Of a stretch of 64,000 nt of DNA, positions 10,800 through 43,900 are shown one piece after another (positions within the stretch are counted from its first letter, which is position 1; each line of letters starts with the position of its first letter). Under the pieces are notes generated by a model. That model had not been told where the DNA came from. It made no database searches and saw only the letters and a list, made by a program, of their open reading frames with translations. Source of the stretch: Paraspadella gotoi (Eukaryota > Animalia > Chaetognatha); NCBI GenBank assembly GCA_051294375.1, contig CM119263.1, positions 10,036,432 through 10,100,431 on the forward strand, written 5' to 3'. Both the position numbers and the translations under genes were made by a program.

Positions 10800-11650
10800 A
10801 GTGAGTTTGTGAAAAGAAATTGAAATGGTGAGAGAGAGTTAGACATTAAGAAAAATAATACATTTTGGTAATGTATAACAAAGATAAAATTATAAACTAA
10901 AGTGAAAATAAATAATGTTATCAATTAACTACTTTAAATTAGTGAAAGTGAAAAGGAAAATTTGAGTGTGAATTTTAAAAGATATTTGAGGGATAATAGT
11001 AGTAAAGTAAAAGTTTAAGAATTAAGAAAGAGCTCAAAAAGTTGTCAAAATGCTGTCCCATGACCAAAATTGGTTCACAAGAGGTATTAGAGAGGCAATC
11101 TACATCAAAGCTCTCGAGCCCTCTTTGAACCGTGATGGAGGACGATTCGATCTCCCTCCAAGCTATGTTTCGCTTATCAAAAGCGTGGAGGAGGCGCCGT
11201 CTCCACCACGTCCGCACAATGATTCCCCTATCTCCACTCAACGTGACAGGAGGAGACCCTTGCGCAGGCAATGGGCTGACGATACCTCTCCTTTAACTCT
11301 TGCAACTCACTCCCTTTCTCTGAGGAGTGAGCGCCCACTCAAAATACGGCTACAGAAGGAAAAGTGGCAAGAACGGACAATCGCCCACCTCGCCAGCATG
11401 CAAGAAGAGGGCAGTCGACAGGCGTACCAGGTCAGAGAGACATACGAGTAGCCTTCGTAATCTTCCCGCAAGGAAGCCTTCCCAGCGCCGTACAAACAGG
11501 CTCAACCACACTGTCTTCTCAACCACTGACGCGCCAATGACTCAACTTCATCGATCAGACCCTTTCATTTGCAAAAAACAAGGGGGGCCAGCTCATTTTG
11601 AGCTCTTTTTTAATTCTTAAACTTTTACTTTACTACTATTATCCCTCAAT
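10800..11650 (+). mobile_element. 5'-truncated Penelope-like element: GIY-YIG endonuclease C-terminus, 3' region and inverted pseudo-LTR
   Basis: Peptide NWFTRGIREAIYIKALEPSLNRDGGRFDLP (11050-11190) is typical of the PLE endonuclease C-terminus. 10987-11039 is inverted relative to 11596-11649. 11425-11630 resembles 36281-36490. Confidence 0.85.
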
Positions 11651-11659
11651 TATCTGACG

Positions 11660-11910
11660 TTTAGGCTCGGGGAAGAAAGGGAGCCCGGGTTAGGATTAGG
11701 TATGGGGGAGAGGCCCGCGGGTGATGATGCTAGTGTTAAGGTTTTAACTCGGCATTAGACAGGATGCCCGGGTTAGGGCTAGGGAAGTGACTCGCTGGCG
11801 ATGTCGCGAGTCGGGGAAACTGGATTTGGATCAGGCCCGGTTTAGGGTTAGGGTTGAGCGGCAGGCGGGAGGCGGGAATCGCGAGCCGGGAGAATGGATT
11901 AGGTTTAGGG
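11660..11910 (+). repeat. Degenerate TTAGGG-like tract inside a dispersed repeat
   Basis: ggttaggg/tttagggttagggtt units. Similar CCCTAA-type tracts at ~170-200, 1560-1600, 13770-13860, 14735-14810, 43525-43650. Confidence 0.5.
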
Positions 11911-12435
11911 GTAGGGCCACGGAGGGCATCCGCTATCGCCGACATCGCTATTTGTATGAAGGCGATCGCGGAGTTCAATACTCTATGGAGGCTTATGGGA
12001 AAACCAAGAGAAAGAAGAAAAATAAATAAATTTTGTTTCTTTACAAAAAAGAAAATTTAAGACGATAACACAACAATGATATTAAAAACGTTGATAAGCT
12101 TCAGGGGCTAAGGACTTCTTTTTATTTCTTTAAAAAATGTTTTTTAAATTTTATATTTTTTGTATTTCTTTTTTAATTGCCTTTGATAGATATTTACAAA
12201 TTAACATTTGTGATTACCACGATTATTTAATAATTCGGATATGTTTTGGTTCTTGTTTTTCGAACCTTCATCAGTCAGTTTTGATAGTTTTAAAAAATAT
12301 TTGGATACTAACTTTGAGAGAAAGAGAGAGAGAGGAGCAATTTTAACCTTGATCACTCTCTCTCTCTCACCCTCCGAATTATTAAATGATCGTTGTAATC
12401 ATAAATAAAAACTGTTACTGTGTAAATATTATTAT

Positions 12436-12565
12436 TATGAAATTTGTACAACCAATATAAAAATTATCCATTCATTTAATAAATAAGCTCTCTTGTCCCT
12501 GACTTTGGACAGGCTTTGGTGGTTTAAGGCCTCCATCACACTTACAAGATAATAACATAGCAGGT
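12436..12565 (-). mobile_element. Partial family F6 element with twister-like core (12491-12549)
   Basis: Reverse complement of 18004-18131; core essentially identical. Confidence 0.8.
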
Positions 12566-12714
12566 TATATTAGCAGGTTATATTATAACGTTATCCTCTT
12601 CCGTTCAGTTTCATTCCTCTTCTTTTTCCGTTAATTTTTTAAGAAAAACCTTGCATAGGCCTCCAGAGTATATTGATCTCCAGGAAGGCCAAAATTTGAA
12701 AAGAATGAAATATT

Positions 12715-13060
12715 AGCGACTTCCAATAAGCACTATTGGTTGAAAGTAATTTCTATTAATTACCTTTCCGTTGTCCACGCGACGACATCTCGGACTATTC
12801 AGACGAACGCGTAGGCGAGACCAGTTATCTCTATAACGCACAATAAAAGCCGGCGAGGAAATTCTCTCAGTTTATCTCGCAAGCGTGCCGTCGCGATCGC
12901 GCGTTGCCGTAGCCCGATGGCATTGATGACTTCTATAAAAACCAAAACATTTGGGAAGAGGGCGCTTTTTTTATCCTCCAGAAAATGAAAAGAAAAGAAG
13001 CAGGACCGGATCGAGCATTTGCCAACGAAAACATAGGGCAGGTGCATACTGCGGGCGGCT
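12715..13060 (+). promoter_or_regulatory. CpG island, candidate promoter/first exon of the RhoGAP gene
   Basis: Dense CpG, CCAAT/ATTGG boxes at 12723-12739, possible short exon MKRKEAGPDRAFANENIGQ ending in a phase-0 donor CAG|gtgcat compatible with exon 19182. Confidence 0.35.
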
Positions 13061-15438
13061 TTTCTTTTGTTTTTATGGTTTGTTTTTATTTCGATACAGT
13101 GGTGTCAATTTTTAAAAAAATTTTAAAACTTTAAAAAAATTAAATTATTATTAAATATGATAATATAATATATAATTAATATAATAAATATATAATATAA
13201 TATATAATATTTATATATGAATATTATTTTTAAAATAATAATATTTTTTTTATTTATATTATATAAATATTTTAACAATTAATAGAAAAAATTTAAATTT
13301 TAAAGCTTTTGAAAAAATAAATGGGAAGTAGCAATTATAAAAAATTATTAATTTATTTAAAAAATTTAATTTTAACCTTAATATTTAACTGAAATAATTA
13401 TTTAAATTAATCCTTAACCTAATCCTTGACCTCTAATATTAGATATAAAAACTTACAAATTATGATATCGGATTTCGGACTTTACTTCGGTACAAAAATT
13501 TATTTTTTGGAACATTTTATCATTAATACTTATTAGGCCGGAACATGTTAAAAATTAAAAGTACTCTCAAATAAATAATAGTTAAGTGACTATTAAAAAA
13601 AATGAAAATAAAAATAATTGTTAAAATTTGTTTTATTGATAAGCATATAAAAATATTTAAATATTATTTTATTATATTTAAAGTTTAAAATTTTTTTAAA
13701 ATTTAAAAAAAAATTTTAATAGATTCTGATAAAGCTTTAAAATGAGGATAAACCGGTAGGTTTTAACATTAAATCTTAACCCTCAACCCCAATTCCTAAT
13801 TTTTAATCTTAACCTTTAAACCTAATTATTAGTCTTTAACCTAAATCCTTAACCTTTATCATAAACCAAGTTTTTAACTTTAATATATATTTTAATTTTT
13901 TATTAAAAAAAATAATTTTATATTTAAAATAACATATAGTGTTCTGGCAAAAAATAATAAAATAACCATATATTTTAATAAACTTAAAAAAAATTTAAAA
14001 AAAATATTTTTATATTTTGAATATAATTTCAAATTTAAAATAATTTTAAATAAATTTTATTAAAAGTATTTAATATTTTTATTTTTTTAAATTCATATAA
14101 AAATAAACAATTGATAAAAATAAAATTATTAAAATATTCAGAATTAATATTTAATATTATAAACCTAAATATTAATATTATGATAAATTTTTAAATTTAA
14201 TATTATTTTTTTAATATATCTTATTTTTATTTAAATTATTTATATTCGTTAATTTTAATTTTTTTATATATATTTTAATATATTATGTTTTTATTTATAT
14301 AATCTATTAATATTATTTATTATTAATTTTATAATCTAAATTTATATATATATTAATACTAAATAGATTTTAAATATTTTTTTATAAAATATTAATATAT
14401 ATATTTTTAAATTTATTTATAAATTATTATATATTTAATTATTAATAAATTAAATTTAAAGAGTAAATTTTTTTAATTTATGTTTCCATCACTGCTTTTT
14501 TTTAGCTTTAAAAGAAGGGAACATGGCGGCTGCCAGGAAATAGAAAAGAAAAAAAGAATTGTAACTTAATTTAGTTACCCAAATCTTAAAAAAATATTAA
14601 TGATCAACATCAATCATTGAATGATTCAATATCAATATTAATTTTAATATAACTTTTTTATGTTTTGCAAACTGAACAAGTCTATACTAATGCATAAACA
14701 TTAAACTCGTAATAGATTTTATTTAATGGCAATCCTAATTAACCCCTAACCTTAACTTGGCCTTAACCCTAATTTACTCTGAACTTATTTTTAACCTTAA
14801 CTAACCCTTTTTAATTTATACTTCATCTTAATTTATTCTTAACCTAAATTTATCATAACTTTCAATTTTAAAATATTACCCAAATATTAATATAATAATC
14901 AACAAATATTTAAAAATTATGATATCTGAATTATTTTAATTTTTATCCTCCTCACTTTGTTTATTAAGAAAAACCTTCCCATAGACCCCTGGAGAGTATT
15001 AATCTCCAGGAATACTCATTTAATTTATTTTTTCTTCGGCTTAATAAACTAAACTTAAGAAACTAAACCCGTTAAACCAGAAAGCGTCTTTCATTTTTTT
15101 TTTAAATTTAACTGCTATATCTGTATGTTGTAGGGTAGCGGAAGAAATCGATTACCTCCCTGAATGGCCTGATTTGTACGCTCCTGCTCCTTGCCCAAAG
15201 TAAAAAAAATTGAGCCTGCTGATGTAAAGTGATCAATATAGTGAGTGTAACCTTCCTTCATTCGTCCTCATCGACGTATAAATTTTCGTAACATTTTCGG
15301 ATACAAGTACAACGACAATATTTACGTATTCCAATTACTAGTACCTCAACCATCAACGAATATACAAAATTCGACATTCTTAAATCATTGAACATAATTT
15401 TAATCCTGTTTAATACTTCACTGTTCAGTCGTTTACTA

Positions 15439-15545
15439 ATTATCCATTCATTTAATAAATATGCTATCTTGCCCCTGACTTTGGACAGGCTTTTGTGGTT
15501 TAAAGCCTCCATCACTCTTACAAGATAATAACATAGCAGGTCCCT
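15439..15545 (-). mobile_element. Partial family F6 element with twister-like core (15465-15527)
   Basis: Reverse complement of 18004-18105 with a few substitutions. Confidence 0.75.
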
Positions 15546-15607
15546 GTTGTCCTTACGTTAGACTTCGAGGATTGGGATTAGGGGATAGGGTTAAGGATTA
15601 TGCTTAA

Positions 15608-16870
15608 GGCCTGGGATCATTCAAACAAGAATTGCATAAAGCTTTATACAAATTATTTTTATGTAAAAGAAGTATATTTCCTTCGTGTTTCACATAAAAA
15701 AAATTCAAATTTGAATAAGGTTTAGCTTCAAGAGCACCCAAAAATCGGGCATTTTTTTTATCGGTAAACCTAAAAAAATTATTCAAGACGGTAAAGTCAT
15801 TTTTAAAAGCAAATTTTAATTCTTTTTATTCAATTAACATCAGCTACCTCAGTGTAATACTAGTACCTAAAACCTAGTCATTCTTATGATGTAATTGGAT
15901 AAATTAAGGATGAAAATATAAACGTTTATGTAGAGAGATGTAAATACATATTTAATGATGCCTAATACCATTTTTTCTAAAAGAGTAATACAAAAAATGT
16001 ACAATTTTTAAAAGTCAAAGACAATCGCCATTGGCATCTGCAATCGGATCCTCTGAGATAGAAACACTCTATGGTGCCATAGATGGTCTCTGATTCACAG
16101 ATGGACTATCGCTTCTTGTCAATTAGTTTCTGTTCCCCACATTCAAAACTGGCTTTAAAGCTTGACCGTTTGCCACAGATGAAAATAAGTAAACCCCTTG
16201 CAGCATTCCTCCTTGTTCACCCGTCCGTGTTTTGTTGTCACAGCATTTTTTAAATTTAAAAAAAAATTAAAAAAATTGGATAAAACTTCAGAGAACGGTA
16301 AAGCCATCATTTAAACTAGAAATGAAAATAGATTTTACAAAAGCATGTCGATTTTAGAGTTCTCTGCTCGACTTTCAGTTCTTTAAAATCTACAGAAAAA
16401 AAATAAAAAATAAAAAATAAATAAACAAAAAGAGTTGGAGCGAAAACTGTTTGAAAAAAAAAATAACTAAAATTATTTTTCGTTAGTATGGAAATGTGGG
16501 AGAAATTCTATGAGAGGGATTTTTGAAAATGTTATTCGTTTTCAAGATATTTAGATTTTAACGCCAAAATTTCATTATTCTTTTTTTTTTCCTATGAAGA
16601 AAAGTGAATTTAGAAAATCCCTCTCATAGAATTGGTGACCTTCACCTCAAGTAAAATTATGCTAAATTTCATCAAAATCCGCTTCGCCGTTTGGGCTGCA
16701 ACTCTTCCGATAGGTTTCTTTTATTTTATATAGTAATATAAAATTCGAAAAAACACCAACGGTTTTGAAAAAATAATAAAGTAATATATTTTTGGAATCG
16801 ACTGGACCTCTACTTTCAAAATCCAAGCTTGTGTACCCTATTTATAACTTTTGGTGAGTGATCCCAGGCC
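15608..16870. mobile_element. Non-autonomous TTAA-targeting DNA transposon (Kolobok-like)
   Basis: Perfect 12-bp TIR GGCCTGGGATCA flanked by TTAA on both sides. Confidence 0.8.
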
Positions 16871-17887
16871 TTAAGGAATGGGTTATAAATTTGTTAAGAG
16901 TTAAGGGTTAAGTTCTTAGAAGAAATCGACCTCGTTGACCCTAAGACGTACAAATATCAACTTGTTTTGTTTTCATTAGGATAAATTAAGTATTAACCGA
17001 TCATTGTCATAAAAATTTTTATGGTTTTAACTGTCCGAATCACACAACTTTTTGAACCGTTTTGTACAACTATTTCCGTTATAATATTTAGTAGGGTAAA
17101 GTTATGAAAATATTGAGCGATTGAACAATGTTTTTTATTGCCTTTATATATAAGATAATAAAAGTTTTATAAAATTTTACAATCTGAACAAAATATTTTT
17201 TATACTTATAATTATATTATCTTTATTTTACAAATTTAATTTGCACTGAAGTAGGTTATCATTAATATATTGCTACAGCCAGTATAAAGCAATAAGCTAA
17301 CATATGTTTAAATTAATAAACGAGTTATTTTCAAGTAAAACTTTTTTTGTTAACTATTTTAAAACTTTTTTTGTTAACTATTTTAAACGCGATGGAAAGC
17401 AAGAAAATGATAAAATTTTAAATTTAAAAAACAATTTTAAATATTTTTTTAAAAAAATTTAATAGGGTTAAATTTTATCATTTTCACATTCAAAGAAAAC
17501 AAAAAAAGTTGGTTAATTATCAAAGCTTGGGCAAAGTGATCGTGTGGATTGACCGGCTTGGAGAAAGAGGAGAGAGGAAGGGTTTAGTGAGAGAGACCGG
17601 TGGTAAGTCACCTCAACTCGATCTTTTCTTCGCTCCACCCTATTGTTTTAAGCCAACAACTCTTGGCGGTTCGACTCCTTGCGTGAGGACGGGCGTAAAC
17701 TGCCTTGAGGGCGTGATAAACCCAGGAACCTTTGCAGTAGTTACGTACAGTCGTCTTCAGTCTTCTTAACGTCTTATAGTTATATATGGTTGTACCAATT
17801 TCATAAAATTCAGCTCCTTGTATTTTGATGCTAGTGCGGAGTACAATATAGTATTCCCCGATCTAATACTTAAGGGAGTGGTCTTTT

Positions 17888-18131
17888 CATACAATTGAAA
17901 CATTCTTTGAAATATTATACCACTTCATTGATAGGAAAGCCAGGTTCACTGGGAGTGAATAAATAAGACTGTGAGAGAGTCTTGATTGAAAGCTTGCAGA
18001 AACCTGCTATGTTATTATCTTGTAAGTGTGATGGAGGCCTTAAACCACCAAAGCCTGTCCAAAGTCAGGGACAAGATAGCTTATTTATTAAATGAATGGA
18101 TAATTTTTATATTGGTTGTACCAATTTCATA
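17888..18131 (+). mobile_element. Family F6 short LTR-like element
   Basis: Homologous over its length to 28999-29215 (minus); ends ttggttgtaccaatttcata. Confidence 0.7.
18016..18078 (+). ncRNA. Twister ribozyme-like motif, type-P5 permutation (cleanest copy); predicted cleavage U18041^A18042
   Basis: P5 TATCTTGT/ACAAGATA; P2 ACC with G(T)GT; conserved GA 18030-31; pseudoknot T1 TGGA/TCCA; palindromic P1 AGGCCT; TAA; T2 AC/GT; P4 CCTG/CAGG with loop TCCA-AAG-T. Confidence 0.8.
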
Positions 18132-19181
18132 TACTTATCCAACATCTACCGTACGAGTTATAATCAGTAATGATTCTGTTTTACTGATCCATAAACATCA
18201 ACATAGCAAGGCTTACCATTGTTTTAGGCAAATTTCTTTTTTTGATCTCTCTAGTCCAGTTTTTTTGCTTTCGTAACAATGAATTTACGGTGTCGCTGCC
18301 ACCTTCGAAAACGAATCATGAAGCGCCATAAAATTGATTGTATGTTAAAAACTGCATCGACTGAGTCGTTGTAATGATTGGTTGAAAGAAATGACTCCTC
18401 CCGAAACAAACCCAAACCGAAATGGATCTACTTCCCAGGTAGAACATAATTATAGTTGCGCCGCAACTACTCGCAAAGAAACTCTTTAAATAAGACGTTT
18501 AAATTGCTCATAACCTGCATATATAATTGTAGAATAAAGATAAATTAGTATAAATTTATAAAACTCAAATTAGCATTCAAAATATAAAATAAATACCTAT
18601 AAAAATATTTTAATAAATTTTTTAAAAAATATTATACATTATTAGAAGCTAGTAAGCTATACATATTTATAAATAATTATTAATAAAATAGGATAAAATT
18701 TAAAAATAATAATTTTAAAATTTTGATACAAGTTTAAAATTCTTTGTTGATAATATAAAATATAAATCATTTTTTAAAAATTGGGACAATAATATGATTT
18801 TTAATATTTTTTAACCAATTTAATTAACAAATTAATCCAGTTTCAAATTTTTTTTTATTTAACCTGTAATTTGACTTGTAATAATATATAAAATCTAAAG
18901 ATAACCTACCCTACAGTATTTGCACCATTTTATTTAACACTGAGGCGTAAAAAAGTAGCCACTTGTTAGGACAGATTGAGCAAAACTTAGCAGAAAGGTA
19001 AAGCATCATTAAATGCTTGTTGTTTATGTTTGCATATGTGATTGTCTAATATTTGTATAGTTTGATAATCATCTGAAAATGCCGACTCAAGAAATTTACT
19101 GCAGCACAACATCACGAACTTATTAGTTATGAGTTATCAATCGATTTAAGTAATGATTTATAAGCTGTGTATTTAATTCAG

Positions 19182-22100
19182 CATCCTACCCCTATGCAAT
19201 TCGGAGTCGGCGGGCCGGTCTTTAAGGCCAGTGGACGTGGAATCGTTCGTAGTCAACGCGGGGTCACTGCAGACAATGGATCCGACGTGACTTACGCTGG
19301 TGGGACTCCAGTGGGAAGCAGCATCCGCCAACTCAAAATTCTTCCCTCTGGGTATAAAAACTTAAGAAAAATAATAAGATTGTATTATAATTATTATATA
19401 CCAATTTATATTTTAGTCGAAATTCATGACGAATTGGTTGTGTATGGTTCGATCATAATGATGGGAAAATAAAAGGACTAACTCAATATAACCGTTTTCC
19501 CAACCTACTTAATCAGTTAATGCTATTGATAATATTTACTTCAGCGAAGCGATTCGTTTCCCGAAATTGGAGGAGTGCGCGCACTTTCATTATGACTTTG
19601 TTGATGTCGGAATCGTGAGGTTAAAACTTCTCCCACTTGGCGACACAAGGCGAGCAACAGTACAGATCCTACAACCAAACAACTTTAAATAAAATAAGCT
19701 ATTAAACTTAAAGACAAATTCTAAAAATTGCATGCCCTAAATGATACATAGAGAAGTATGTTGGCCAAGAACTCAAAAACACTCCAACAGTAGGCCCTGT
19801 AGGGGTAGCCGCACTCAATGGGGTGAGTCAAAAATTTAGAGCGAGTACATGCTCAAACGAAAATTTATACATTTTTAAGTATACTTTCTATGGACAAAAA
19901 ATTTCTTATATGGCTCTATACCCTAGTAATTAATTTTTTAATATTTATTTATAGATATGAATGGCCAAAAATCTTTCTTAGAAATTTTAAATTTTAAGAC
20001 CAGATTCAGATAGCTCATAAAAAGTTGTCTACACAAAGTATAATTCTTTTTTAAATATTTTTATGATAAGTAGGTCAAAAATAAGAAAAACCATAAAATT
20101 CATCATCAACATCATCTTTCGATGATTTTATCGGTTTTTTTATATTTTTATTGAGAAAAAGTAATAATTTTTAAAAGCTGTAATTATATTTCTTGTTTAA
20201 CTTTTTATGCTCTACCAGAATCCATCAAAAAATTTCAACTTTTCAAAAAAAAATTTGTTTTCTCTATATAGTAATATAATAATTTTAATTAGGCTAGTAC
20301 CCTCAGAAAAAAGCATTTTTGACAAAAAATATTTTAACACTATAGTCATCATAGATTATTTTAACGCTGTATACATTAGCATTTTAATTTCATCGGCAAT
20401 GGCTCCCAACAGTGATGTTATTGATCATACGGATGATGCTCATTAAGTTTTGGCGGTTTATTTTGAAAATGATTAAAACCAGCATGTTATTGTAACAGCC
20501 AGCTTGTCTTTGATGCCAATTGGGATGGGGCATCTCACTGGTAGCTTAAGGGGCTACAGACCCTCAGTGACGCCTGCAGTCACTGGCGCGGTTACCCTAG
20601 GACGGTCTCGCTTTTCCAACACAGAGGGAAGTCGTTAGGACTGTGTATGGAACGTAACTCTTGGGATTGTGCGTTCCCCTCAGAGCCAATGGTATTGGCT
20701 GAAGGAAGTTTGAGGCGATGCGGTGTGAATATAGCGTCACAATCTGTAATTAAACGAGTTTTTAGAGCAGCATCAGCTCTTGAATAAAGTACATTGTCTG
20801 GGAGACTGGGTTGGAAATTATTTTCACGTTAAAGTGACAATCTAACCCAAACTGTTGAATTTACCATATTCTATAATTTTAGTAGATCCTTGGAGAGAGG
20901 CCAGTTCAATGCGTCCGGTCAAATCCCAACGATTTTATCCGATATCACAAATGGTAAGTCGCAAATTTATTTCGTAAGCTGATACTTCGTAAAAAAATCA
21001 TAATGTAATGTATTTAATTTCGTCAGAATCTCCTCCCTCGAAGAATCGAGCCTCGGTTCCGATCGAAGGGCTCAGCTTCTCCATAGAAGTGATGGCCAAG
21101 GACAACAGTTGGATCATCAAACGAACCTATGAGCAGTTTCGCCAGATGGACCATACTCTTCATCTTTGCATCTATGATAGGAGGTAATACAAAATCAAGT
21201 CAGTGTGGTTGAAATTACTCCACATAGTAAATTATATCACCTCGATTCAGGTTTTCTCTTCTTTTCGAAATCCCGCCTTTGGAGAGGGCTGTTAAGTCCG
21301 CCCTGAGCCGCAAAGGCAACCCGCTTCAGGAACTCTGGTCTGATCTAAGAAACTACGTCGGAAGACTGTCCACGATCGCGGGTAACCTGATCAACTGCGG
21401 GCCGATTCTCAATTGGCTGGAGGTAAATCATATGTGACATCGGTTCAATTTTTTTTTCTTGTTGATTAAAATTTTTGTAATCTTCGTTCTCGTTAGTTGG
21501 ATAATCGTGGCAATCACCTCCTCGCCGCGCCTAATTGCTCTGGAAGCGCGCCGATTAACACGCCAGCAGTGGCTGCTGCTCACGTCATCAAGAGTTACGC
21601 CCCCCAGGTGGGATAGAGAGTTTCCATTCGGTGTACTACATAGTAACAACGATTAGAGTTTAATCGCACTGTTTCCTGTCAGGCTCCGGACGAGCTTCGC
21701 CTGGAGGTCGGAGACATCGTCTCAGTGATCGACATGCCACCGGCGGAGGACACCACCTGGTGGCGAGGGAAAAAGGGATTCGGCGTCGGTTTTTTTCCTT
21801 CTGAACACGTCCAAGTCATAGGAGAGCAGGTCTTACGGTTTGCGTTGTCTAAGCAAAAATAAAAGTCCGGAAAACGAATGCACCAATTATAATCTAAAAC
21901 GAGTTTTAACATTTTTCTTAGAATTATAATAAAACGTATTCCCATGCCAGATATACATGACAAATTTTGAGTATTAATTTTGTAATTATTTTTCAAAACG
22001 TATGTATTCAATTGTTTTCGCTTGTTTTTAATTTTTAATTTGAGATACTGAATTCAGTTTATCTTCCTTCTCATCATGATTAATTTGCCCCCCCAAAAAA

Positions 22101-23899: not shown

Positions 23900-26800
23900 A
23901 CTCATACACGCATTTGTTTGTTTTATTTATGATGAATGATTCATTGCGTCAATGAATGACTATCATCGCATCAATGAATGACTATCATCGTATCAATGAA
24001 TGATTATCATCACATCAATGAATGACTATCATCGCATCAATCATTTGGTTATTATCACATCAATCATTTGGTTATCATCACATCAATCATTTGGTTATCA
24101 TCGCATCAATTATTGGTTAATGGTTATCATCGCATCAATATTTGATTATCATCGCAACAATCATTTGGTTATCATCGCATCAATCCTTTTGTTATCATCT
24201 CATCAATATTTGGTTATCATTGAAGGTAGGCGAGAACCTATTCTTTTAAGAGAAAGGTCATTCAGCATAACAATACGTAATCATTGATGTGTTAGAGCTA
24301 ATATATCGAGAAATACTTTATAGTCATCAGTAATCACAAAGAAATAAGTTCTTATTTATTTGTGTTCATTCTGTTTTCAATAATTTTTTTAAATGGGTAA
24401 ATAACAAAATTGTTAAGTTAAATGGGTAAGCACATTTTTTAAAGATTTGTTTTTCAATCTGGTTGTTAAAAAATTCTAGGTAAGAAGTTAAAACACGGTA
24501 TGGGATAGTTTAGAAGGGGAGAATTAAACAATTAATCTCGTTACTCTGTTGGTTTTCCAGTCATGAACAAAATCTTCAGTTAAATAGATGGTAAAGAAAT
24601 TCGAGCTACAATGAATCTACACTGAATTTGAAGAGTTGCAGCCAAAACGACTGCAATAATATGGAATTAAAAACTTGATTAGCAATCTTAAAAACATTTG
24701 TAAAAATGTAATAGAGAGACATTTTGATAAACGCGTTCCAGTTAGAAAGAATTCAGGGTTAAAGTTTAAAAACGTTTCATTTTCAAGGATACAAGTTGAA
24801 ATTTAAAAATGTCTCTCTATTACATTTTTCTAATTCAGTAACAAAAAATTCATAAAAAATATCAGATGGATTGGCCTTTTCGTTTGACCTGCAACTCTTC
24901 AGATAGGTTTCTTTTATTTTATATTATAATTAAAACCGATATAAAATGGGGTAGAATGCATCAAATGCTTAAAGTGAATACATTTTCGGAATCGCCGGGA
25001 GCTCAGCTTTCTGAATTTGTACTCCATTTTAGCCTATTTTGAAGTTGAATTGAATGACCCTTTTTCTTAAGAATTTTAAATATCGATCTTATCCTTTCTT
25101 TTTAGGCCTGCGCAGGCGTCGTCGAGGAACACGGTATCGTAGACGGAGTCTATCGTCTTTCGGGTGTTGCTTCCAGCATCCACCGCCTTCGGGCGCTCTT
25201 TGACAACGACGGCTGCGCGCCGGATGTGGCGGCCGCCACTGGCACCAATGTTCAAAATGGTATGCTGCAAATTTATCTAATTTTTCTGTTTAAGAGGAAA
25301 GGTCATTCACCTTAACAATGCGTATTCTTTAATACATCGAGAAATACATCATAATCATAAAAAAAAAAAAAAAAAATAAAAAAAATTGGCCTGTTTTAAA
25401 GTTGATTTGAATGACCCATTTTCTTAAAACGATTTATTTTACGATGTATTTTTTCGAACCGAAAAGGGATGCCTCCGTCGCAATTCTCACTGGGTACCAA
25501 CGACGCCTTTGATCTCGCCGCCGATGAAACCGTTCAAAACGACATCCACGCAATCGGCTCACTCCTCAAAATGTACTTCCGCGAACTTCCTAATCCATTG
25601 CTGACCTATCAACTTTACGACAAATTCGTGGTACGGGTTTGGCTCGCATCTACGAGCCAAACAGAGTTTTTTAATTTTATATATTTAATAAAGAGATCGT
25701 AATTATTGTTATGTGTTAGTGACAGAAGCATTCAATATAAGCAGTCCCTGTTACAGTCGGGTTAAGCGCCCCGTCCCTCTTAACTGCGAGTCGACCACCG
25801 GGCTAGAACCACAGACCTTTGGGTTGGGAAGCGAATGACTTGCCTCCGGCACCAATGGCCGCTGATGAACAATTGGTGGATTTTAGTCTACCATAATAAT
25901 ATATATGACACAATGAAAAATAACATGGCGAAACGGTATAGTGCTGATTTTTTCCCTTTAAAATTGTTTCTGAGCTAAATTAATTGATTGTGACTTTGGG
26001 TAATATGTGCGATATACACTACTGGACATTACTGTGTCTGACCAAAACCCTTGACCATCAACAAAAAAGCTAACTAGATCAAAAATAGTAAAAAAGATGA
26101 AGCAATATAGCTCGAAACGCTTACAAAATTTTAGACCATTGCTTTTATAAATGCAAAAAGAATATTAATATTATTAAAACAAAACTTTAACGATAACTTA
26201 ATAGTTAACCGAGACCAAGATGAATATTTTTTACCCATCATTTCCACAATTTATATGAATCATTAGCTTGTAATTAGTCAATTAATCTAAATAACAAATT
26301 TATTTTCAATTTTTTTTATGGATGGGAAATTTTCTCTGCTTACTCCCCTTGTGTCTAATTATTTAATATTTTAGAGGTATTTTCAAAAACTTTATATAAT
26401 TACTAAATTTTTTCACTTTTTTTCAATTCTTTCAAACAAAAACAACATCATGAAAACATTTTAAATTAATAAAAAAAAATTGATTGTATGATTTTGAAAA
26501 AAAATATTTTGAAACTTGAGAATAATAGGAGCTGACGTCGTTCTAAGAGATCAAGGAAGATTTTTTCAATGGAGATTTTCGTTCAAATCAGACTACCAAA
26601 CAATATAAACGCTGCTGAGAAAAATTCCGGTAAAAAATAGATGTAAAAACACTAGATTCCGATCCTGTTGCATCTGAAGGGCTCGCATTTTTTTTCTCTT
26701 GTCAAATAACCTTCATCTTGATATCAAACTATCAGATTCAAATGGACTGCTCCGTTCGGGAAAATATTTTCAACGCAATTTTTATAAATAAAATAAAGGG

Positions 26801-29619
26801 ATTTCTCACCTAAAATACAATGTAAATGTTGTGATTTTACAATAAACTTTGAATTCAGGAATCCGATAGCCATATGTGTGAAGGGCTCTCAAAATTTTTC
26901 TTTACTTTTTATTTGGTTATTTTAATATGATACAATCATGGTAAAGTGAATTAGTCCATTTTGGTGAAATTTTTATTTAAAGTAAAAGTAAAAAAGGAGC
27001 TAACGATCGGAATTCTAAGAGTTTTCAACCGGGAGTCAGATTCAGGAAAAATCTTCTTTGGCGAAAATCTTCCAAAGAAGGGGTGGATTTTCTGAAGATT
27101 TTGGTTAATATTTTCTATATTTAGGATCGGATTTTTTTGAAACTTAACAATAGCAATATTGCCATCATTCTACATTGGCCGGTAAAAGAATATATTTAAA
27201 AAAATCTGGCTTTTTTTGTCAGAGCTTAGTCCTAAGAATAATGGATTTCGAGTTAGGAAAACAATTTTGCAATTCTAAAAAAATCAGCCTCTAGCCTTTC
27301 AATTTTTCTAGAGGCTGATTTTTTATTTTTTTGATATTTTGATTTATTTATTTTTAATTATTTATTTATTTATCTATTAATTAATTATTGAATCAATCAA
27401 GTCAATCGTTAACGGCATTATTGTCGACGTCGCCATAGTCGTCATTGCTTTTGTCATGGTTAGTAATGAAAAGGCCTAAAACAAACATTTCGGATCAAAT
27501 TAATTAATTGCCTAATTAATTAATTAATTAATTAATTAATTACCGCTAATGATCGTGGGCAGATCGGACATTGTTTGCTCAAACTTGTTTTTCTTACAAT
27601 TCATTTTAATAATTTTTATACATTCAAATGCAAAAAATGAGTGAGAAAGAGAAAAGGATAAGAGAAGCAAGAGCATGGGTTAAAAAACAGGGGCAGGGAG
27701 AGGGAGAAAGAGTGGAAAAAGTTATTTTATTGCGATTAGAGGCAGAACGAGAACGATTGAGAGAAAAAATAGATAGGAAAGAAGGGAGAAAGAGAAACAG
27801 AGGGAGAGAAAAGCAAAGATAGAGCGGAAGGGAAATAAAGGTAAAAGAAGAAAAGAAGGGATGGCACAGATAATTATGAGGAGAGAAAAGTAAGAGAAAG
27901 GGAGAAAGACAGAGAGAAAGAGAGAGGGACAGAGAGAATACTCATAACTCAATACTCATAACAATTATTACTGTCTTTTCAGTAGCAGGATCTTTGGGAT
28001 ACCATGAAGTACATTGAACTTGGGGTTGAAAAGTTCTGTGGTGTGGGGGAACGTAGCAGAATTGGAAGAGAATTTATAATATCGACTTTGGTATTGTCTT
28101 AGATAATCGGTAGACGGATCGGGAGATTGGTTGGGAGAAGGGTCGGGAGATGGGTTGGAAGACGGGTCAGGAGATTGGTTTTTTAGATGGGTCGGGAGAT
28201 GGAGCGTAAACTGGATCTGCAATCCTGCTTGGCACAAATTTTGTGTTGTCTGAGTGAATTTCTCTTTTAAAGAGTTCAGAGTTTGCGTTTAGCCATTTTG
28301 ATGGGCGTTGGTCGCAGTGAGAAACGATGACAACATTTTTATAGGTATTAGAAGTTTCGGCAAAGGGGGAAAGGGGTCTTTTTCTCCGAGTTTTTTCCGA
28401 ATTCATCAAACCAACTTTTCCAAGCATAGATCATTTTGACTTCTGAGTTTATGGCAGTGATAATTGGCGCGAGTTTTTGGGAGTGGAGGAGAATTAATAT
28501 CATTTGTAGACTGAAGGGGCTGAATTTGATTTTCAAGGGCAGACGTTTTTTTATTCTTTTTTCCAATTTTGCTAATCTCTAATTGGAATATATAATTATT
28601 AAGTAGTCTCTTTGTAGATGAACGGGCCTGTCTAAAGTGTAGCGACTGTGAGCTTGAGGGGCGCGTGGTCAGTAGGAGGGCAGCGCAGCGTGGGCGTTGA
28701 GAATGAAAAGGTTGCGTGTTCACGAGAAGGGATCACCAATAAAGAGACAGAAATAATTGGTAAGCGACTTGTAAAGAGCGGGATTCGAGAGTGTATTTTC
28801 TGAAGATATTCGGCAATTAAGTAAACGATGACCTCAGAGCATAATCAAAGGAAAGATAATAATAACTGGTCAAGTGTACAAAAAGAGAGAGAGAGACATT
28901 TCACATCTTCGGCCAAAGTGAATGGCCTGTGGCTCGGCGAAGTATCCTCCACAATCCACATACATACATTTATTTATTTATTTATTTATTTTTAACTTCA
29001 TGAAATTGGCTCAACAAATATAAAAATTATCCATGCATTTCATAAACCGACTTTGGAAAGCCTATGGTGGGTTAAGGCCTCTGAGGCGGTATTACAAGGT
29101 AAGAGGATCCTGCAAACTCTCAATCAAGACTCAGTCTTGTTTATTCATTCCCAGAGTACATTGCTTTCCTATCAATGTTGTGGTAAAATATTTCAAAGAA
29201 TATTTGAGTTGTATATCTTGATTACAGGAAGCCGTCTCGGTGAGCGAAGAGGGTCGTCTTAATAGACTCCGTGACTGCGTCGAGCGACTTCCGCCGCCGC
29301 ACTTCAGGACTGTCTGCTTTCTCATGCGCCACCTGTCAAAGATGGCCGACCACTCCCACCTGACCAACATGCATGCGAGGTTGGTCGATCTTGCCGCTAG
29401 TTTCAGCTCCCAACTTCTTTCATTTGCACGTTTGTTGTCTCTCGTTTCAGGAATCTAGCGATCGTTTGGGCCCCTAATCTCCTCCGTTCTAAGTCGTTGG
29501 AACTGAGACCAACAACCGGAGCCGACGGTGATTTTTTTTTATATTTCTTTCTCTATTATTTTCTTTCTCGATCTTTTTTATTTTTTATCTTCTTTTGTTC
29601 TTTCTTTTTTTTTCTATTT

Positions 29620-32700: not shown

Positions 32701-35700
32701 AAGTTAAAAAAAGGCAAACTTAATAAGTAATTAAACTAAAGTGCAATTTGAATTTGAAGAAAGTGAAAATAGTGAGAAATGAAAAAAGAAAAAGAGGGCT
32801 TGAGGGCTTTGATGTAGATCGCCTCTCTAATACCTCTTGAGAACCAATTGGGGTCATGGGACAGCACGAGACCGTCAGTTTCTCTGAACAGATGGCCAGT
32901 ATTTGCTGACTTGCATATGTAAAGTTGAAACTAGTATGCTTAATGTTAATAATATGTTTATATTGGTTGTACCAATTTCATATCGTTGTTGATGAAAGAA
33001 ATTCTTTTTTCTCACTAAATCTTAAAACGCAACGAAAGGATAGAAATAATACAATAACTTAACCGTTAACATATTTATTTAAATGGTTAATTTCGGTTAA
33101 TTTTAAAAAAATATTTTTTTCATTTATTGGTATTAAATCTTTAAATTTTTTAAAGAAAAGTTTTTTTTCTTTTCCTCTCTTATTCTCCTCTCCATTTTTT
33201 TCCCGCCTCTTTCTCTTGTCCATTTTTTCCGTTTTTTTAAACTCTTTTAAGGTCATTCACCTTAACAAGGCGTAATCTTTGATGTATTAGAGCTAATAAT
33301 ACTATTAGAGAGATACATGGTAATCACCAGTAAGGCGTAGTAAAATTTCAAAATTTAACTTTAATTAAAATTCTAAAAGTGAGGAACGAACAACATTATA
33401 CTAATGAACATTTATGTATAAAAAATTTATAATAAATTTTACAATTTACGCAGTAGGCCATATTTATACTAGTACTAATCCAAATAAAGTTAAAATTTCA
33501 AAACAGTTTTTTCTAAGATTTTTTGCAGATTTGGATTCGTCATAAAAAGTGATAAAAGAAATATAAATCTTTTTAAAAATTCCTTCATTAAGTGGGTAAA
33601 AAATTAGAAAAAACTATATTTTAAGCTGAAAATTAACTTTTTATATATTAAAATAGTAGTTTTGTAATTTTAACCACTTAATGAAAGAATTTTTAAAAAT
33701 AATTTATATTTTCTTTTATCAACTTTGACGTGGAATTCAAATCTGCAATAAAAATTAGGAAAAGCCTATTTTGAAATTTTTCGATTTTCATAAGGATAGT
33801 ACTAATATATAATATAGCCTACTGCGAAAATTAAAAACATAAAATTAATTTTTTTTACAAATTAATGTTCACGTGGTGTATGTTGTTTCATAATTGACCT
33901 TTATAATTTTCGTACGTAACTTTCACTTCGCCTTAATCACCAGTAATCACAAAAAAAGTTTTATTTATATGTAAACATTTTGTTTAAATAATTTTTTAAA
34001 TCGGTAAATAACAAAATTGTTAAATTAAATCGGTAAGCACATTTTTAAAGATTTGTTTTTTCAATCTGGTTGGTTGTTTTTCTTGGTAAGAGGATAAAAC
34101 ACGGTCAGGGATAATTTAGAAGGGGAGAGTTAAACATTTTTCCAGTCTTGAACTAGATTCCTACATAAATTTTTAAATTTGTCAGAACGTTTTTTCTTTT
34201 TTGTTTAAGAGAAGTTGCCTTTAAATACTTTAATCTGTTTAAAATATAAATATTTAAAAGTTAAATTATAAATGAACGGTTAACGGTTAAAAATGTTTAT
34301 ATTAACGGTTAACGCAAGTTCCTAAAAAAATTATGGTTAACAGAAACTCTATTCACAGGCAGTTGTGATTCGAAATATTGTATCGTTATGCGGATTCAAT
34401 TTTCACGCGATTGAGATTAACGACATCACTATGGGAAGGGCATGCCACCTCTGAACGCGTAAGTTTGACCTTTGTCGTCGAATCTACCCAGGAATAGTTT
34501 TTAATATTGAATGTATATCTTGCATTGATATTTCAGGTTAAATAAGTGATTTGGTACGATAAGGAACTTTCTTCGAAAATGAACCAAAACTTTTATAATT
34601 CACAACCATAATTATCCTTTTATTCTGTCAAGAAGTACGTTAATTACAATTATAGAAATATCTTTATTCATACTACATCAGCGTTGTAGAGAAGAAATGA
34701 CGACAATCTCCGCCTACATCACGCGTTGCGATTTTGATGGAGTGAGTTTAGATTGAGATTTCCACGTTTTCTTCTTGTGCTGCCTTAGATAAAAGTTTAA
34801 AGACAAGTCACATGGTGATCGAAGGGAGAATTGACTTTCCTAAAAAATAAATATTCACCTTTTCTCAGTTTTCGCGCGGCCGCATTTTTAGTCGGATCTG
34901 CTTATCAGCAAATTCCGACTCTATAATCCACTTAGTCGGTCCGCCGTTCCAACCTCCATTTTTATCATATCAGAACATCGAATTATGATAAATTATGCAA
35001 AAAAAATTATGTCCGTACGTCCGTCTTAGTGTCCATCCCACCTTAGCAATAAACTCCAATTACTTTTAATTGGATGAATGGATTGGAATGAAATTTTGTG
35101 TGTGGGTAAGAAAGCGTGTGCTTGAGTTGGATATAAAGTTTTGATGGAATCGTGAAAATGGAAATGATTTAAAATTGGAAAAACAAAATTGACATTTACT
35201 TGTCTCTTTTGATTTACATTAACTTATAATTCTTCAGGACATCCTTTGCAACCTTATTTACATTTTTGTCCTTGTTAATGTCAATTTTAATTCAACACTG
35301 TTCTCCGTAAGCACCCCATTTCTGTTCTTAATCCCTAAACTCAATATATTTAAGCTTATTTATAAAGGCGTAGTGAATGTTGCAGATCAAAATTTGAATA
35401 GTTGATCATGAACATAAACAGTCTTATATTAAAGAACATTGATATATAAAAAAAATTTGAACTTCCTAATTTTTGCATTAGCCCATATTTATACATTAAG
35501 GCGGATCTCTGTTGTATAATTTTTTTCAAAATCTTTTACCTCCCGATTTTTTTTTTGCCCTTTGTACTTCTCTTTCATTTCACAACAGCAATTGATTATT
35601 AAATATTCGGGATCACACGCATTTTTTTCAATTTATAAAAAAATAGCAAATCGCGAACTGTGATTGGTTAATATTGGTCACGTGACCTTAAAATCTTTGT

Positions 35701-40900: not shown

Positions 40901-43900
40901 TGTTCTTTCAGTAACTGTAGTTATGGTTGTGTTTGTAGTGATTAAGATAGTTATGATTTAATTTTAAGTAGTTATTATTTTTGTTATGAGAGAAAATAAA
41001 AAAATAATTTAAAAAGTTTAATCACTCACTTTTCTATTCACAAATAAAATTTGAACTAATTGCTCCATCCACACATCAGTGATTAAAGTTTAAAGCTAAG
41101 GGCTGATTGATTGATAGATGGACATCATTTTTTTACATAATAATTTAATATTTTAAAATGTTTTAAACAAAGTGGATTATTAAGTTAGAATCTGCGACTA
41201 GCAAATCTGACAAAAAGCTTAAATGGGGCACTTTTTAAAAATTTTGCTGTCATTTTTTGGTCACCAAAGTGCTAAATACTAAAAATAATAAAAAAATTTT
41301 TACCTATATCCTTAAGAAGCATTCTACTTTTTGCTTTACTTTTGTGGTGGTCACAAAAAAGGCATTCTCTATATGTATTATATGTATTACCAGCTAATTT
41401 TATTTATAATTGATATTATTTATTTAGCTAATTTTAAATAGAATAAATTTGCTTACTAATTTTCTATGTCAAATAAACTTCGGTTGGTTTTTATGAATGC
41501 GACTTCGTTGTAGACGCGAGAACTTATATACTGAAAAAAAAAATGAATTGATATATTGAAGAGACAGTAATTATTGTTATTTGTTAGTGACATAACCGTT
41601 CAATATAAGCAGTCCCTGAGCTTTGCATCCGGCTGTAACACCATGTTACAGGCGGGTTAAGCGCCCCATCCCTCTTAACTGCTAGGCGATCACCAGGCTA
41701 GAACCCTGGACCTTTGGGTTGGGAGGCGAATGACTTGCCTCCGGCACCAATGGTCACTGAGGAACGGTTGGTGGATTTTAGTCCACCATTCTTCCCCCCC
41801 TCCCATAGGGAGAAGTCTGTTGTGTCTCTTCAGTGAATTGTTGTTGTTGGTGGAAAGTTCATTACCAAATTTAGGCATGTCGCCTGTTGTGTTGTTGGCG
41901 GAAAGTGCATCGCCAGGTTGAGGCATGTCGCCTGAAAGTGTTGTTGTTGCTGTGGTGTTCGGAAGTTGGGCTCACCAATGAAGAGACAGTAATTATTGTT
42001 AGTGTTATTGTTAATGACAAAACCATTCAATATAAGCAGTCCCTGAGCTTCGGATCAGGGGGGTTAAGTGCCCCGTCCCTCTTCACTGCTTGGCGACCAC
42101 CAGGCTAGAACCCCGGACCTTTGGGTTGGGAGGCGAATGACTTGCCTCCGGCACCAATGGCCACTAATGAACGGTTGGTGAATTTTAGTCCACCATAATA
42201 TAATGGTTCATCGGCAAATCTCAACCACTTACCTTGACTTTTGAAAACATATCGGTAAAGCCTTTTAGGTAACGCCAGACTCCGGGATCAAACCCAGGTG
42301 CACCTAATTCGAATTTCCGATGTAGATGAGTCAGAATATTAGATGATTGCGTTACTTTCTCTAGTTTACCGTACTCTTCCTGAAGTCTCTCCCACTCTTG
42401 AAAAGCGTGGAGCATGAGAAAGCAGAATCGCTGGTCCTTCTCGGTCAACTTGTTTCTCAGCATGTTAAAGATCTGTTTTCCCAAGCGAATTTAATGATTC
42501 GTACAGTTAACCTATTCTGGCGTTCTGATCATCACAAATAACGACATTGCTTACTGGCGAAATTCCGTTTGGTTCTTGTCGTTGAGCCCACCAGTGATAC
42601 AAATTAGTCAGATCTGGTGTAACAAAATAATCAGGGGAAGTTGTGAAAAGCCAAAAGCCAAAAATCGGACGGGATGAAACCTGGAACCTCCGGACAGGGA
42701 ATGAGATTCATGATATAGTTTCGAATGTCCAAGTTTTCCTCGTCAAGCTGAGCCTCCGATGTACTGTTGTTCATGCTGTTCTGCTCCGTTTCGCCGACGT
42801 TGGAGGAGGAGCTTGAGCTCATCGAGGATCTGGAGTGGGTAATGGGGCGAAGCCAACACGAATCGACCTTTAAAATGTTTAAAATGCAGCCGTGAAAGGA
42901 GTAAGGAGGAACGGCACCTTCTTATATTTTCGTTTTCGTTGGCGCCGTAAAAACGGAGTCCGTCGTCTTCAAATCCCGGATCTTTCACGTGACCCTCGCA
43001 GTCTTGAATCACGGGGGGACGCATGTATTGTGAAACGTCCATGTCTAACGATATAGGGGGTTTTGGGATGTGTAAGGGGAGGAAGGGTAATTTGGTATCT
43101 AAATCATCTCTAACACTCTCTTTTTTGTTTATTTGATACAAATCCTAATCAAAATTTGTCTTGACTTCAAAAGAAATCTCAAAACACGGAAATAACAAAA
43201 GTTTTAATCCAAATAAAACGAAAGATGGCATTTTTTAAAAACACTGGGAATTGGGATGGGTCTGTTATGGCTAAAAAAAAACTAGGTACTCTTTTTTTCT
43301 GTGCGTATGGTAACAGCCGGGTTGCCTATGATGTCCATTGGGATGGGTTATCTCCCTGTTGGCTTTGGGGGCTTCCGACCCTCAGTGACGCCAGTCACTG
43401 GCGCGGTTACCCTAGTACGGTCTCGCTTTGCCAACACAGAGGGAAGTCGTTAGGACTGTGGATGCATTGCAACGCTTGGGATTGGCTGAACGATGGTGGA
43501 TAAGAGGCGGTATGAAATCAGAATTCTAATCCCTAATCTTTAAGCTTAGTTCTTAAGCCTTAATCTCTATCCCCAATCATTAAACTAATCCTTAACTGTA
43601 TCCTTGACCTATTCTTTAACGGTAACCTTAAATTAATTTTTAAACCTAAAAATTAATTTTATTCCGAATTTAAGATGATGGGGCTGCAAAGTAGGTTAGA
43701 AAGGATACTAACCTAGAAACAAATAAGCATAGCCCTCCTTCCTCCTGCTAAATAATCGAAATCATCTCTCAGTTTTTTGTCTCCCTAATACTTTTTTCAT
43801 GACGTGTGAAAAGAGGTTACATTTTATCTTTTTAATATTTCTCTTCTTCTAGATATCGTTCTCTATTTTACTTTTGTTTTCGAAAAATTTATGGCGAAAT

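Follow-up and report, generated by a model that had tools for sequence, protein, structure and literature searches.

The window, a stretch of 64,000 nucleotides from Paraspadella gotoi, carries five copies of a short non-coding repeat named F6, one of which (17780-18131) is sense to an SH3- and RhoGAP-encoding gene, likely in an intron, and contains a twister-like ribozyme motif. This copy amounts to 1.08 units of a 326-nt monomer. In the old copy at 29000-29214 the palindrome, UAA and L4 of the motif are kept, while its GA-UGG and P5 strands are lost.

Table 1. Positions of the F6 repeat, its twister-like motif, family-B copies and host exons in the window.
Feature	Position	Strand	Details and basis
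F6 unit	17806..18131	+	326 nt, GC 35% (0.353); fixed 3' end 18130-18131
Partial tandem ahead of the unit	17780..17805	+	26-nt repeat of the unit's 3' end (18107-18131), 96% identical
F6 copy, 5'-truncated	12436..12566	-	98% identity with 18001-18131; no change in the twister core
F6 copy, cut at both ends	15438..15546	-	94-95% identical
Old F6 copy	29000..29214	-	73% identical
F6 3'-end fragment	32954..32983	+	30 nt
Type-P5 twister-like motif	18016..18078	+	opened at P5; RF02684 alignment, descriptor, pair table
P5, 5' strand	18016..18023	+	8 bp with 18071-18078; pair probabilities 0.66-1.0
P2, 3' strand	18026..18029	+	partner 18044-18046; pair table
Conserved GA	18030..18031	+	predicted general-base G and A of the A.A pair; Rfam alignment, roles from literature
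T1 strand UGG	18032..18034	+	partner CCA 18059-18061; Rfam alignment, pair table
P1 region	18035..18040	+	loop-less palindrome AGGCCU; pair table (stem 3, loop 0)
UAA	18041..18043	+	predicted cleavage 18041/18042; Rfam alignment
T2 strand AC	18047..18048	+	partner GU 18064-18065; pair table
P3, minimal	18049..18053	+	C-AAA-G; pair table
P4 and L4	18054..18069	+	4/4 pairs, 8-nt L4 at 18058-18065; Rfam alignment, pair table
Family-B copy	57839-57901	+	descriptor, pair table
Family-B copy	43367-43426	-	descriptor, pair table
Family-B copy	20549-20611	-	descriptor, pair table
Family-B copy without P3-P4	54083-54300	+	
Likely host exon just downstream of F6	18217..18438	+	X5/X6 contigs
SH3/RhoGAP exons and spliced exon pair of the host gene	21647-21859, 25415-25699, 29227-29377, 29449-29528	+	

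The F6 repeat and its likely host gene

The host gene, which we take by its domain order to be ARHGAP32/33-like, has its SH3 and RhoGAP exons on the forward strand, so that the F6 copy at 17806-18131 is sense to it, as the initial annotation had stated. The same annotation would place the copy in intron 1 if the promoter is the CpG island at about 12.8 kb. An intronic position as such is likely: a contig found in the public runs X5 and X6, whose near-identical figures probably represent one data set, contains 18217-18438 alone together with 302 further letters absent from 17480-18216, and 29377 is spliced to 29449 over a 71-nt GT..AG gap in one contig of X6, so that the F6 copy likely lies in an intron, upstream of the probable first coding exon. 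The proposed promoter gains little support, because CpG is undepleted window-wide (o/e of 1.12 in the window, 1.61 in 12601-12900 and 1.58 in the RhoGAP exon). The exon at 18217-18438, which we infer to belong to the SH3-RhoGAP gene, ends in CAG followed by GT and contains a short ATG-initiated frame. A U12-type intron was considered for its odd left edge and rejected, no U12 donor being found in 12000-18300; an alignment clipped near the AG at 18209-18210 is the likelier cause.

Two fragments of the window, at 11026-11200 (+) and 32787-32867 (-), are 78% identical in protein and presumably resemble a Penelope GIY-YIG endonuclease at its C-terminal end. Pfam gave no match on either, GIY-YIG is the family of the nearest Atlas cluster that has one (17% of members, score 0.86; a lead only), and no sequence is common to them and F6. 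An inverted repeat seen by eye (10985-11040 and 11595-11655) brackets the endonuclease-like fragment, and a possible degenerate hammerhead-like core lies near 11320. The segment 29215-29520 was considered as a decayed Penelope endonuclease and discarded, as it has no similarity to the window's endonuclease-like fragment; its flat single-copy depth and the 29377/29449 GT..AG joint identify it as host exons instead.

All five window copies of F6 lack a poly(A) tail and a microsatellite tail, inspection by eye showed neither a tail nor a duplicated target site at them, and the flanks beyond 18131 agree only at about 0.41. None of the five starts at the predicted cleavage site; the copies span it and end 90 nt past it. 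The expectation of full two-LTR F6 elements was not borne out: two-LTR anatomy around a unique center was not found, and the family consists of single 326-nt units with a fixed 3' end, variable, truncated 5' ends and head-to-tail joints. An autonomous element sharing the F6 3' end is absent from the window, and an array with two whole ribozymes was seen neither in the window nor in the contig pieces. No frame for a reverse transcriptase and GIY-YIG endonuclease exists in F6, the unit being 326 nt long and the DNA upstream of the old copy being a single-copy host exon; Pfam found nothing in the one scanned frame overlapping the F6 stretch (17428-17766). The earlier remark that F6 lacks clear A and B boxes is correct, with none in 17780-18131, a segment that is also free of a hammerhead core on either strand. 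The window has no tRNA gene. Outside the repeat, 112 nt upstream of F6, a B-box-like match (17668-17678, +) lies in low-copy DNA; further upstream, 17548-17615 is a separate AG-rich repeat of raised depth; and a B-box-like match at 63465 (-), with an A-box-like stretch upstream of it, may be a tRNA-derived SINE.

F6 is a high-copy repeat. When contigs from public runs of the same organism were aligned to a 1-kb stretch, 19,367 contigs of the run X1 fell on it, with a summed depth of 5e5 to 1.8e6 over the F6 unit, peaking in the last 70 nt, versus 35.5 in the unique flank; summed depth is not a copy number, so that thousands of copies are what we infer from it, and contig depth cannot show the level, ends or strand of expression. 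At least 672 X1 contigs (in the four largest sets) depart from the unit at 18127-18132 and continue in AT-rich, unlike sequence, and 44 extend past 17787 with letters resembling the unit's 3' part. Head-to-tail joints lead into truncated copies (18131>17879, 18130>17857, 18133>17859 and 18131>17956), and three contigs carry an opposite-strand joint, 17998/18131. Two biofilm metagenomes, X10 and X11, hold one F6 contig each. That of X10, 354 nt long, has the length expected of a closed 324-nt unit with 30 nt of overlap, pointing to tandem copies or long terminal redundancy; its 7 differences from the organism-A majority, none of them in the core (P 0.37, weak), suggest that a related population or species carries the F6 family.

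Among the variant places listed, 1 of 33 falls in the 43-nt core versus 4.4 expected (P 0.056), which is weak evidence of core conservation across F6 copies. The copy at 18016-18078 deviates from the X1 majority at 18027, where A is the family-majority letter, and at 18071 (73% and 78% of depth, respectively). In the family majority, 17996-18007 forms a second near-palindrome, a 2-nt loop closed by 5 bp (at 18000 and 18001, G makes up 73-76% of depth); it is the start of the copies with cores at 12491 and 15465, and several joints fall there. In addition, 62 X1 contigs start at 18072, just 3' of the P4 hairpin, which could come from a reverse transcriptase that stalls on the folded ribozyme or from clipping caused by the 18071 mismatch.

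The twister motif and its departures from the Rfam model

The segment 18016-18078 had been called a twister from its letters, and this call is upheld. The Rfam model of the type-P5 twister, RF02684, spans 18027-18069 (+) over its full length (25.6 bits, E of 0.05 in a 9-kb search) and, at relaxed thresholds, aligns end-to-end to 12498-12540 (-) and 15474-15516 (-), the three copies scoring 25.6-26.3 bits. The motif falls 12 bits short of the Rfam cut-off for this family, a gathering score of 37.6, and at gathering level Rfam returned zero matches window-wide. A strict structural descriptor gave four matches of score 18 and two of score 17 in the window, against none and one, respectively, in 100 dinucleotide shuffles in 1-kb blocks; as score 18 never occurred in the shuffles, the motif is not due to chance. 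This descriptor had replaced a loose version that found hundreds of matches in AT-rich DNA and equally many in the shuffles. Two metagenome pattern scans gave 0 matches, and no Rfam hammerhead match at E<=10 was obtained in 11000-20000. The F6 motif is almost certainly twister-derived, and it lies outside RF02684 as curated, on account of its P1 and its score.

Twister ribozymes are cut between U and A, the general base being a G and the acid the A of the cut site. In F6 the UAA of the model falls on 18041-18043, which predicts a cut at U18041/A18042, the site proposed initially. Both pseudoknots are intact, as had been claimed: T1 has three of three Watson-Crick pairs, with one compensatory A-U replacing the consensus C-G, and T2 two of two, with one compensatory A-U replacing the consensus G-C. 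The pair table likewise contains the minimal C-AAA-G form of P3 described before, the C of which is changed to A in copy 15465, and a fully paired P4 whose closing pair is the G-C of type-P5 twisters. The near-identical sister cores noted earlier are located at 12489-12551 (1 difference in 63) and 15465-15527 (4 in 63), both on the minus strand, and catalytic and pseudoknot positions are all intact in the three young F6 copies, compensatory changes included. The roles given in Table 1 to the conserved GA residues follow the twister literature (PMC5408937, PMC11662667).

The statement that all stems are intact has to be withdrawn, as P1 is a loop-less AGGCCU and P2 has only two Watson-Crick pairs in register. 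The latter are accompanied by a C.U mismatch, or by a third pair across a bulge, and the 5' strand of the stem has 3 nt; the yardstick for the P2 stem of type-P5 twisters is 3-4 pairs, and P2 is also 3 bp, with a 3-nt strand, in the Rfam-passing phage loci L010 and L012. F6 and RF02684 share the order of elements, GA, UAA, the 8-nt L4, P4, both pseudoknots and the P5 end, whereas F6 differs by its short P2, by a compensatory A-U in both T1 and T2, by its score (25.6 vs 37.6 bits) and by its P1, which is an 8-bp looped hairpin in RF02684 and a loop-less 6-nt palindrome in F6. According to McKinley 2024 (PMC11662667), P1 and P2 defects are tolerated and pseudoknots are sensitive, natural P1 defects occur without a drop in cleavage, and about 94% of the natural twisters assayed are active. 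Twisters with P1 deleted are reported to cleave near the wild-type rate by Gebetsberger and Micura (PMC5408937), and P1-less cleavage is called inefficient by Liu 2021 (PMC8501958). The F6 family is likely to self-cleave in some form.

The loop-less P1 and the predicted monomer and dimer folds

In F6, P1 does not close as a hairpin: AGGCCU has a loop of 0 and a monomer pair probability of 0.0, and it is able to pair only between two copies, with a self-duplex of -9.1 kcal/mol. A loop-less P1 is present in all three intact F6 copies, in the form AGGCUU in the copy at 15438-15546, and in two of the three whole copies of a second repeat family, family B. This family of about 260 nt looks unrelated to F6 and carries a different type-P5 twister-like motif (T1 CGG/CCG, T2 GC/GC, long P3), which Rfam at E<=5 does not list; its P1 is the palindromic UCCUAGGG in three of four copies, with one substitution in the third whole copy. 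As a baseline, viral contigs were scanned for the consensus P5 order, which gave 13 loci, assigned by Rfam to type P5 (5 loci) and type P1 (8 loci, excluded from the P1-length baseline). Looped P1 hairpins of 20-30 nt are present in all five type-P5 phage loci (3 distinct motifs), a small and non-animal baseline. Two phage loci, L011:40-139 and L013:20-119, each hold two same-strand type-P1 twisters back to back, about 50 nt apart.

The folding model gives the F6 monomer a ground state of -15.1 kcal/mol, in which GGAGGC pairs with the P4 5' strand. The twister secondary structure, at -8.2 to -8.4 kcal/mol, lies 6.7-6.9 kcal/mol above it (pseudoknots uncounted), and P4 has a probability of about 0.03, which persists in all five longer contexts tested. 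When two copies are co-folded, the outcome is a domain-swapped dimer that is more stable than two monomers by 8.5-9.5 kcal/mol. Each of its strands contains P4, P5 forms in trans, and six of six palindrome positions are trans-paired; the P2 register of this fold is non-native, and the family-majority letters give the same dimer result. The model omits pseudoknots and magnesium, both of which favor the active monomer. In these predictions the dimer gain is not palindrome-specific: when the six P1 letters are permuted into 156 non-palindromic orders, 18 of these equal the gain (mean of -6.3, against -9.5), because swapping of P5 alone is favorable, and 35 depress monomer P4 to the same extent. 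In copy 15465 the dimer gain is merely 1.5 kcal/mol and P4 is absent from the dimer, and the family-B dimer folds leave the palindrome unused. The dimer is a supported prediction, and pairing might boost cleavage at least tenfold, a gain that we propose with some hesitation.

These folds bear on the experiment suggested in the initial annotation, which had named 18005-18090 as the best construct. It has the best P5; on the other hand, its monomer is predicted to misfold (P4 0.027) and it carries non-majority letters at 18027 and 18071, so that a negative monomer assay of it would not refute the F6 family. The idea of assaying both monomer and dimer is supported.

The same element could instead harbor an ordinary monomer twister with a vestigial P1, in which the palindrome is the remnant of a hairpin that lost its loop. 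The 6-nt linker could close as 1 bp with a 4-nt loop, so that the monomer may work, or it may stay unpaired; the near wild-type rate of P1-less twisters (PMC5408937) and the natural P1 defects harmless to cleavage (PMC11662667) agree with this, as do the many non-palindromic linkers with a similar dimer gain and the weakened palindromes of F6 copy 15465 and family-B copy 43409. Against it stand the misfold predicted in every context, with P4 at about 0.03, the inefficiency ascribed to P1-less cleavage by Liu 2021 (PMC8501958), and the innermost P1 pairs, which are out of reach for any monomer and yet complementary in two different families. On balance we regard the monomer as possible but rather doubtful. 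It is improbable, in turn, that the motif is an inactive or nearly inactive relic, a passenger in a repeat spreading without cleavage. The sub-threshold Rfam score, the short P2, the missing P1 hairpin, the stable predicted misfold, core conservation short of significance and the copies that span the cut site (none of the five in the window starts there) would suit such a relic; the intact catalytic and pseudoknot positions of all three young copies, with their compensatory changes, speak against it, as do the share of assayed natural twisters that are active (about 94%, PMC11662667) and, weakly (P 0.37), the X10 contig with 7 differences and none in the core.

Relation to known elements and proposed mechanism

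The anatomy of F6 is that of Penelope-like elements and non-LTR retrozymes, with a twister replacing the hammerhead. Retrozymes are described as low-GC tandem units of 150-450 bp (Cervera 2020, PMC7229834). Their metazoan non-LTR forms (PMC7229834, PMC7761336; Li et al. 2026, bioRxiv 10.64898/2026.07.22.740005) share with F6 a non-coding, low-GC unit of about 330 nt with one ribozyme each, head-to-tail joints and many solo copies. They differ in their ribozyme, a type I hammerhead as opposed to the twister-type of F6, and are known to form long arrays and to be expressed as linear and circular RNA. Lacking a hammerhead, F6 is not a retrozyme as defined; neither is it a two-LTR retrozyme, a class defined by two ribozyme-bearing LTRs, a 4-bp target duplication and PBS/PPT, and it is without the internal A and B boxes of a tRNA-derived SINE.

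A close parallel for the palindrome is offered by the dimer-acting minimal hammerheads known from Penelope-like elements and from newt and axolotl repeats (PMC7229834, PMC6765202), in which the cut-site stem is likewise a trans-pairing palindrome; where stem III of a Penelope hammerhead is palindromic, cleavage takes place in the dimer (PMC6765202). Penelope-type insertion anatomy is common to the dimeric Penelope-type hammerheads and F6. The ribozyme class differs, dimer cleavage is measured for the Penelope, newt and axolotl hammerheads and predicted for F6, and F6 encodes no protein, unlike Penelope-like elements. Craig 2021 (PMC8557442) names as marks of Penelope insertion truncated 5' ends, copies in partial tandem, a truncated copy in inverted orientation and a tail of 30-40 bp; F6 displays these marks, with a terminal extension of 26 nt vs 30-40 bp. 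Mobilization of F6 by a Penelope-type machinery is on this basis rather probable. The same paper describes Naiad elements without canonical hammerheads, and its main text does not mention the twister (PMC8557442).

In Schistosoma, Perere-3/RTE LINEs carry twister variants at their 5' end beside the target duplication, with an endonuclease-reverse transcriptase frame downstream (Liu et al. 2021, PMC8501958). These twisters and F6 have in common the retroelement setting and a P1 that is weak or missing, whereas the F6 motif is of type P5, lies 90 nt from the 3' end and is contained in copies that span the cut; F6 is not a 5' twister of the Perere-3 type.

The fixed end of F6, which has a subterminal hairpin at 18110-18124, may also be viewed as that of a rolling-circle (Helitron-like) DNA element. 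Such elements have fixed ends, tandem copies and AT-rich flanks and make no target duplication, all of which suits F6, where no target duplication was seen. That an active twister is carried by a repeat moved in this way, or as a LINE-dependent SINE-like tail in keeping with the 5'-end twisters of Perere-3/RTE LINEs (PMC7761336, PMC8501958), is nevertheless very improbable, given the absence of a poly(A) or microsatellite tail from the five window copies, the agreement of only about 0.41 behind 18131, the lack of an A or B box, the position of the ribozyme near the 3' rather than the 5' end, and the inverted and partial-tandem joints that match Penelope insertions.

A dimer-favored twister in a Penelope-mobilized tandem repeat is, as a whole, the best explanation of F6, and we advance it tentatively. 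The twister would self-cleave at U18041/A18042, and cleavage would probably be most efficient with two copies paired at AGGCCU. A lone copy is predicted to misfold, GGAGGC occupying the P4 5' strand, and two copies are predicted to swap halves, with P1 and P5 formed in trans and P4 in cis. Read-through of head-to-tail copies would produce RNA with two ribozymes 326 nt apart; such tandem transcripts would be cut into unit-length RNAs and the monomers then circularized. A Penelope-type reverse transcriptase may begin some 90 nt 3' of the cut and proceed through it; with the cut site lying inside F6 copies, only uncut or re-ligated RNA can serve as its template. Copies made in this way would share one 3' end, would be truncated at the 5' side and would now and then exceed one unit. 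Solitary intronic copies would cut slowly, so that host pre-mRNA would be spared. A stronger form of the proposal, in which F6 and family B are both Penelope-mobilized twister retrozymes, active only by palindrome pairing and silent as solo intronic copies, is in our judgment unlikely.

Twisters are common in genomes, with a biological role documented chiefly for those at the 5' end of Schistosoma LINEs, and hammerheads are the only ribozymes with which retrozymes and Penelope pseudo-LTRs have so far been described. A literature search found no report of a dimeric, palindromic or retrozyme-borne twister, similar sequences being possibly catalogued in supplements or subscription papers, and the accessible text of PMC10085705, PMC5680766 and PMC8782182 holds nothing on dimeric or repeat-borne twisters. 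If the stronger form of the proposal is true, no natural twister acting as a dimer would precede F6 and family B, and they would have converged on the dimeric Penelope hammerheads. A twister that takes the place of the hammerhead and uses the same palindrome device would indicate that element architecture rather than ribozyme class sets the design. Pairing of two copies would constitute a natural on-switch for a fast ribozyme and would explain how the genome tolerates many intronic copies. The twister would then also be a candidate substitute ribozyme in hammerhead-less Penelope elements of the Naiad type, and for hammerhead-less Penelope families it is relevant that loop-less P5 twisters are missed by the Rfam cut-off. 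The closed 324-nt unit folds modestly better than its shuffles (z of -2.15, with 3 of 60 as good).
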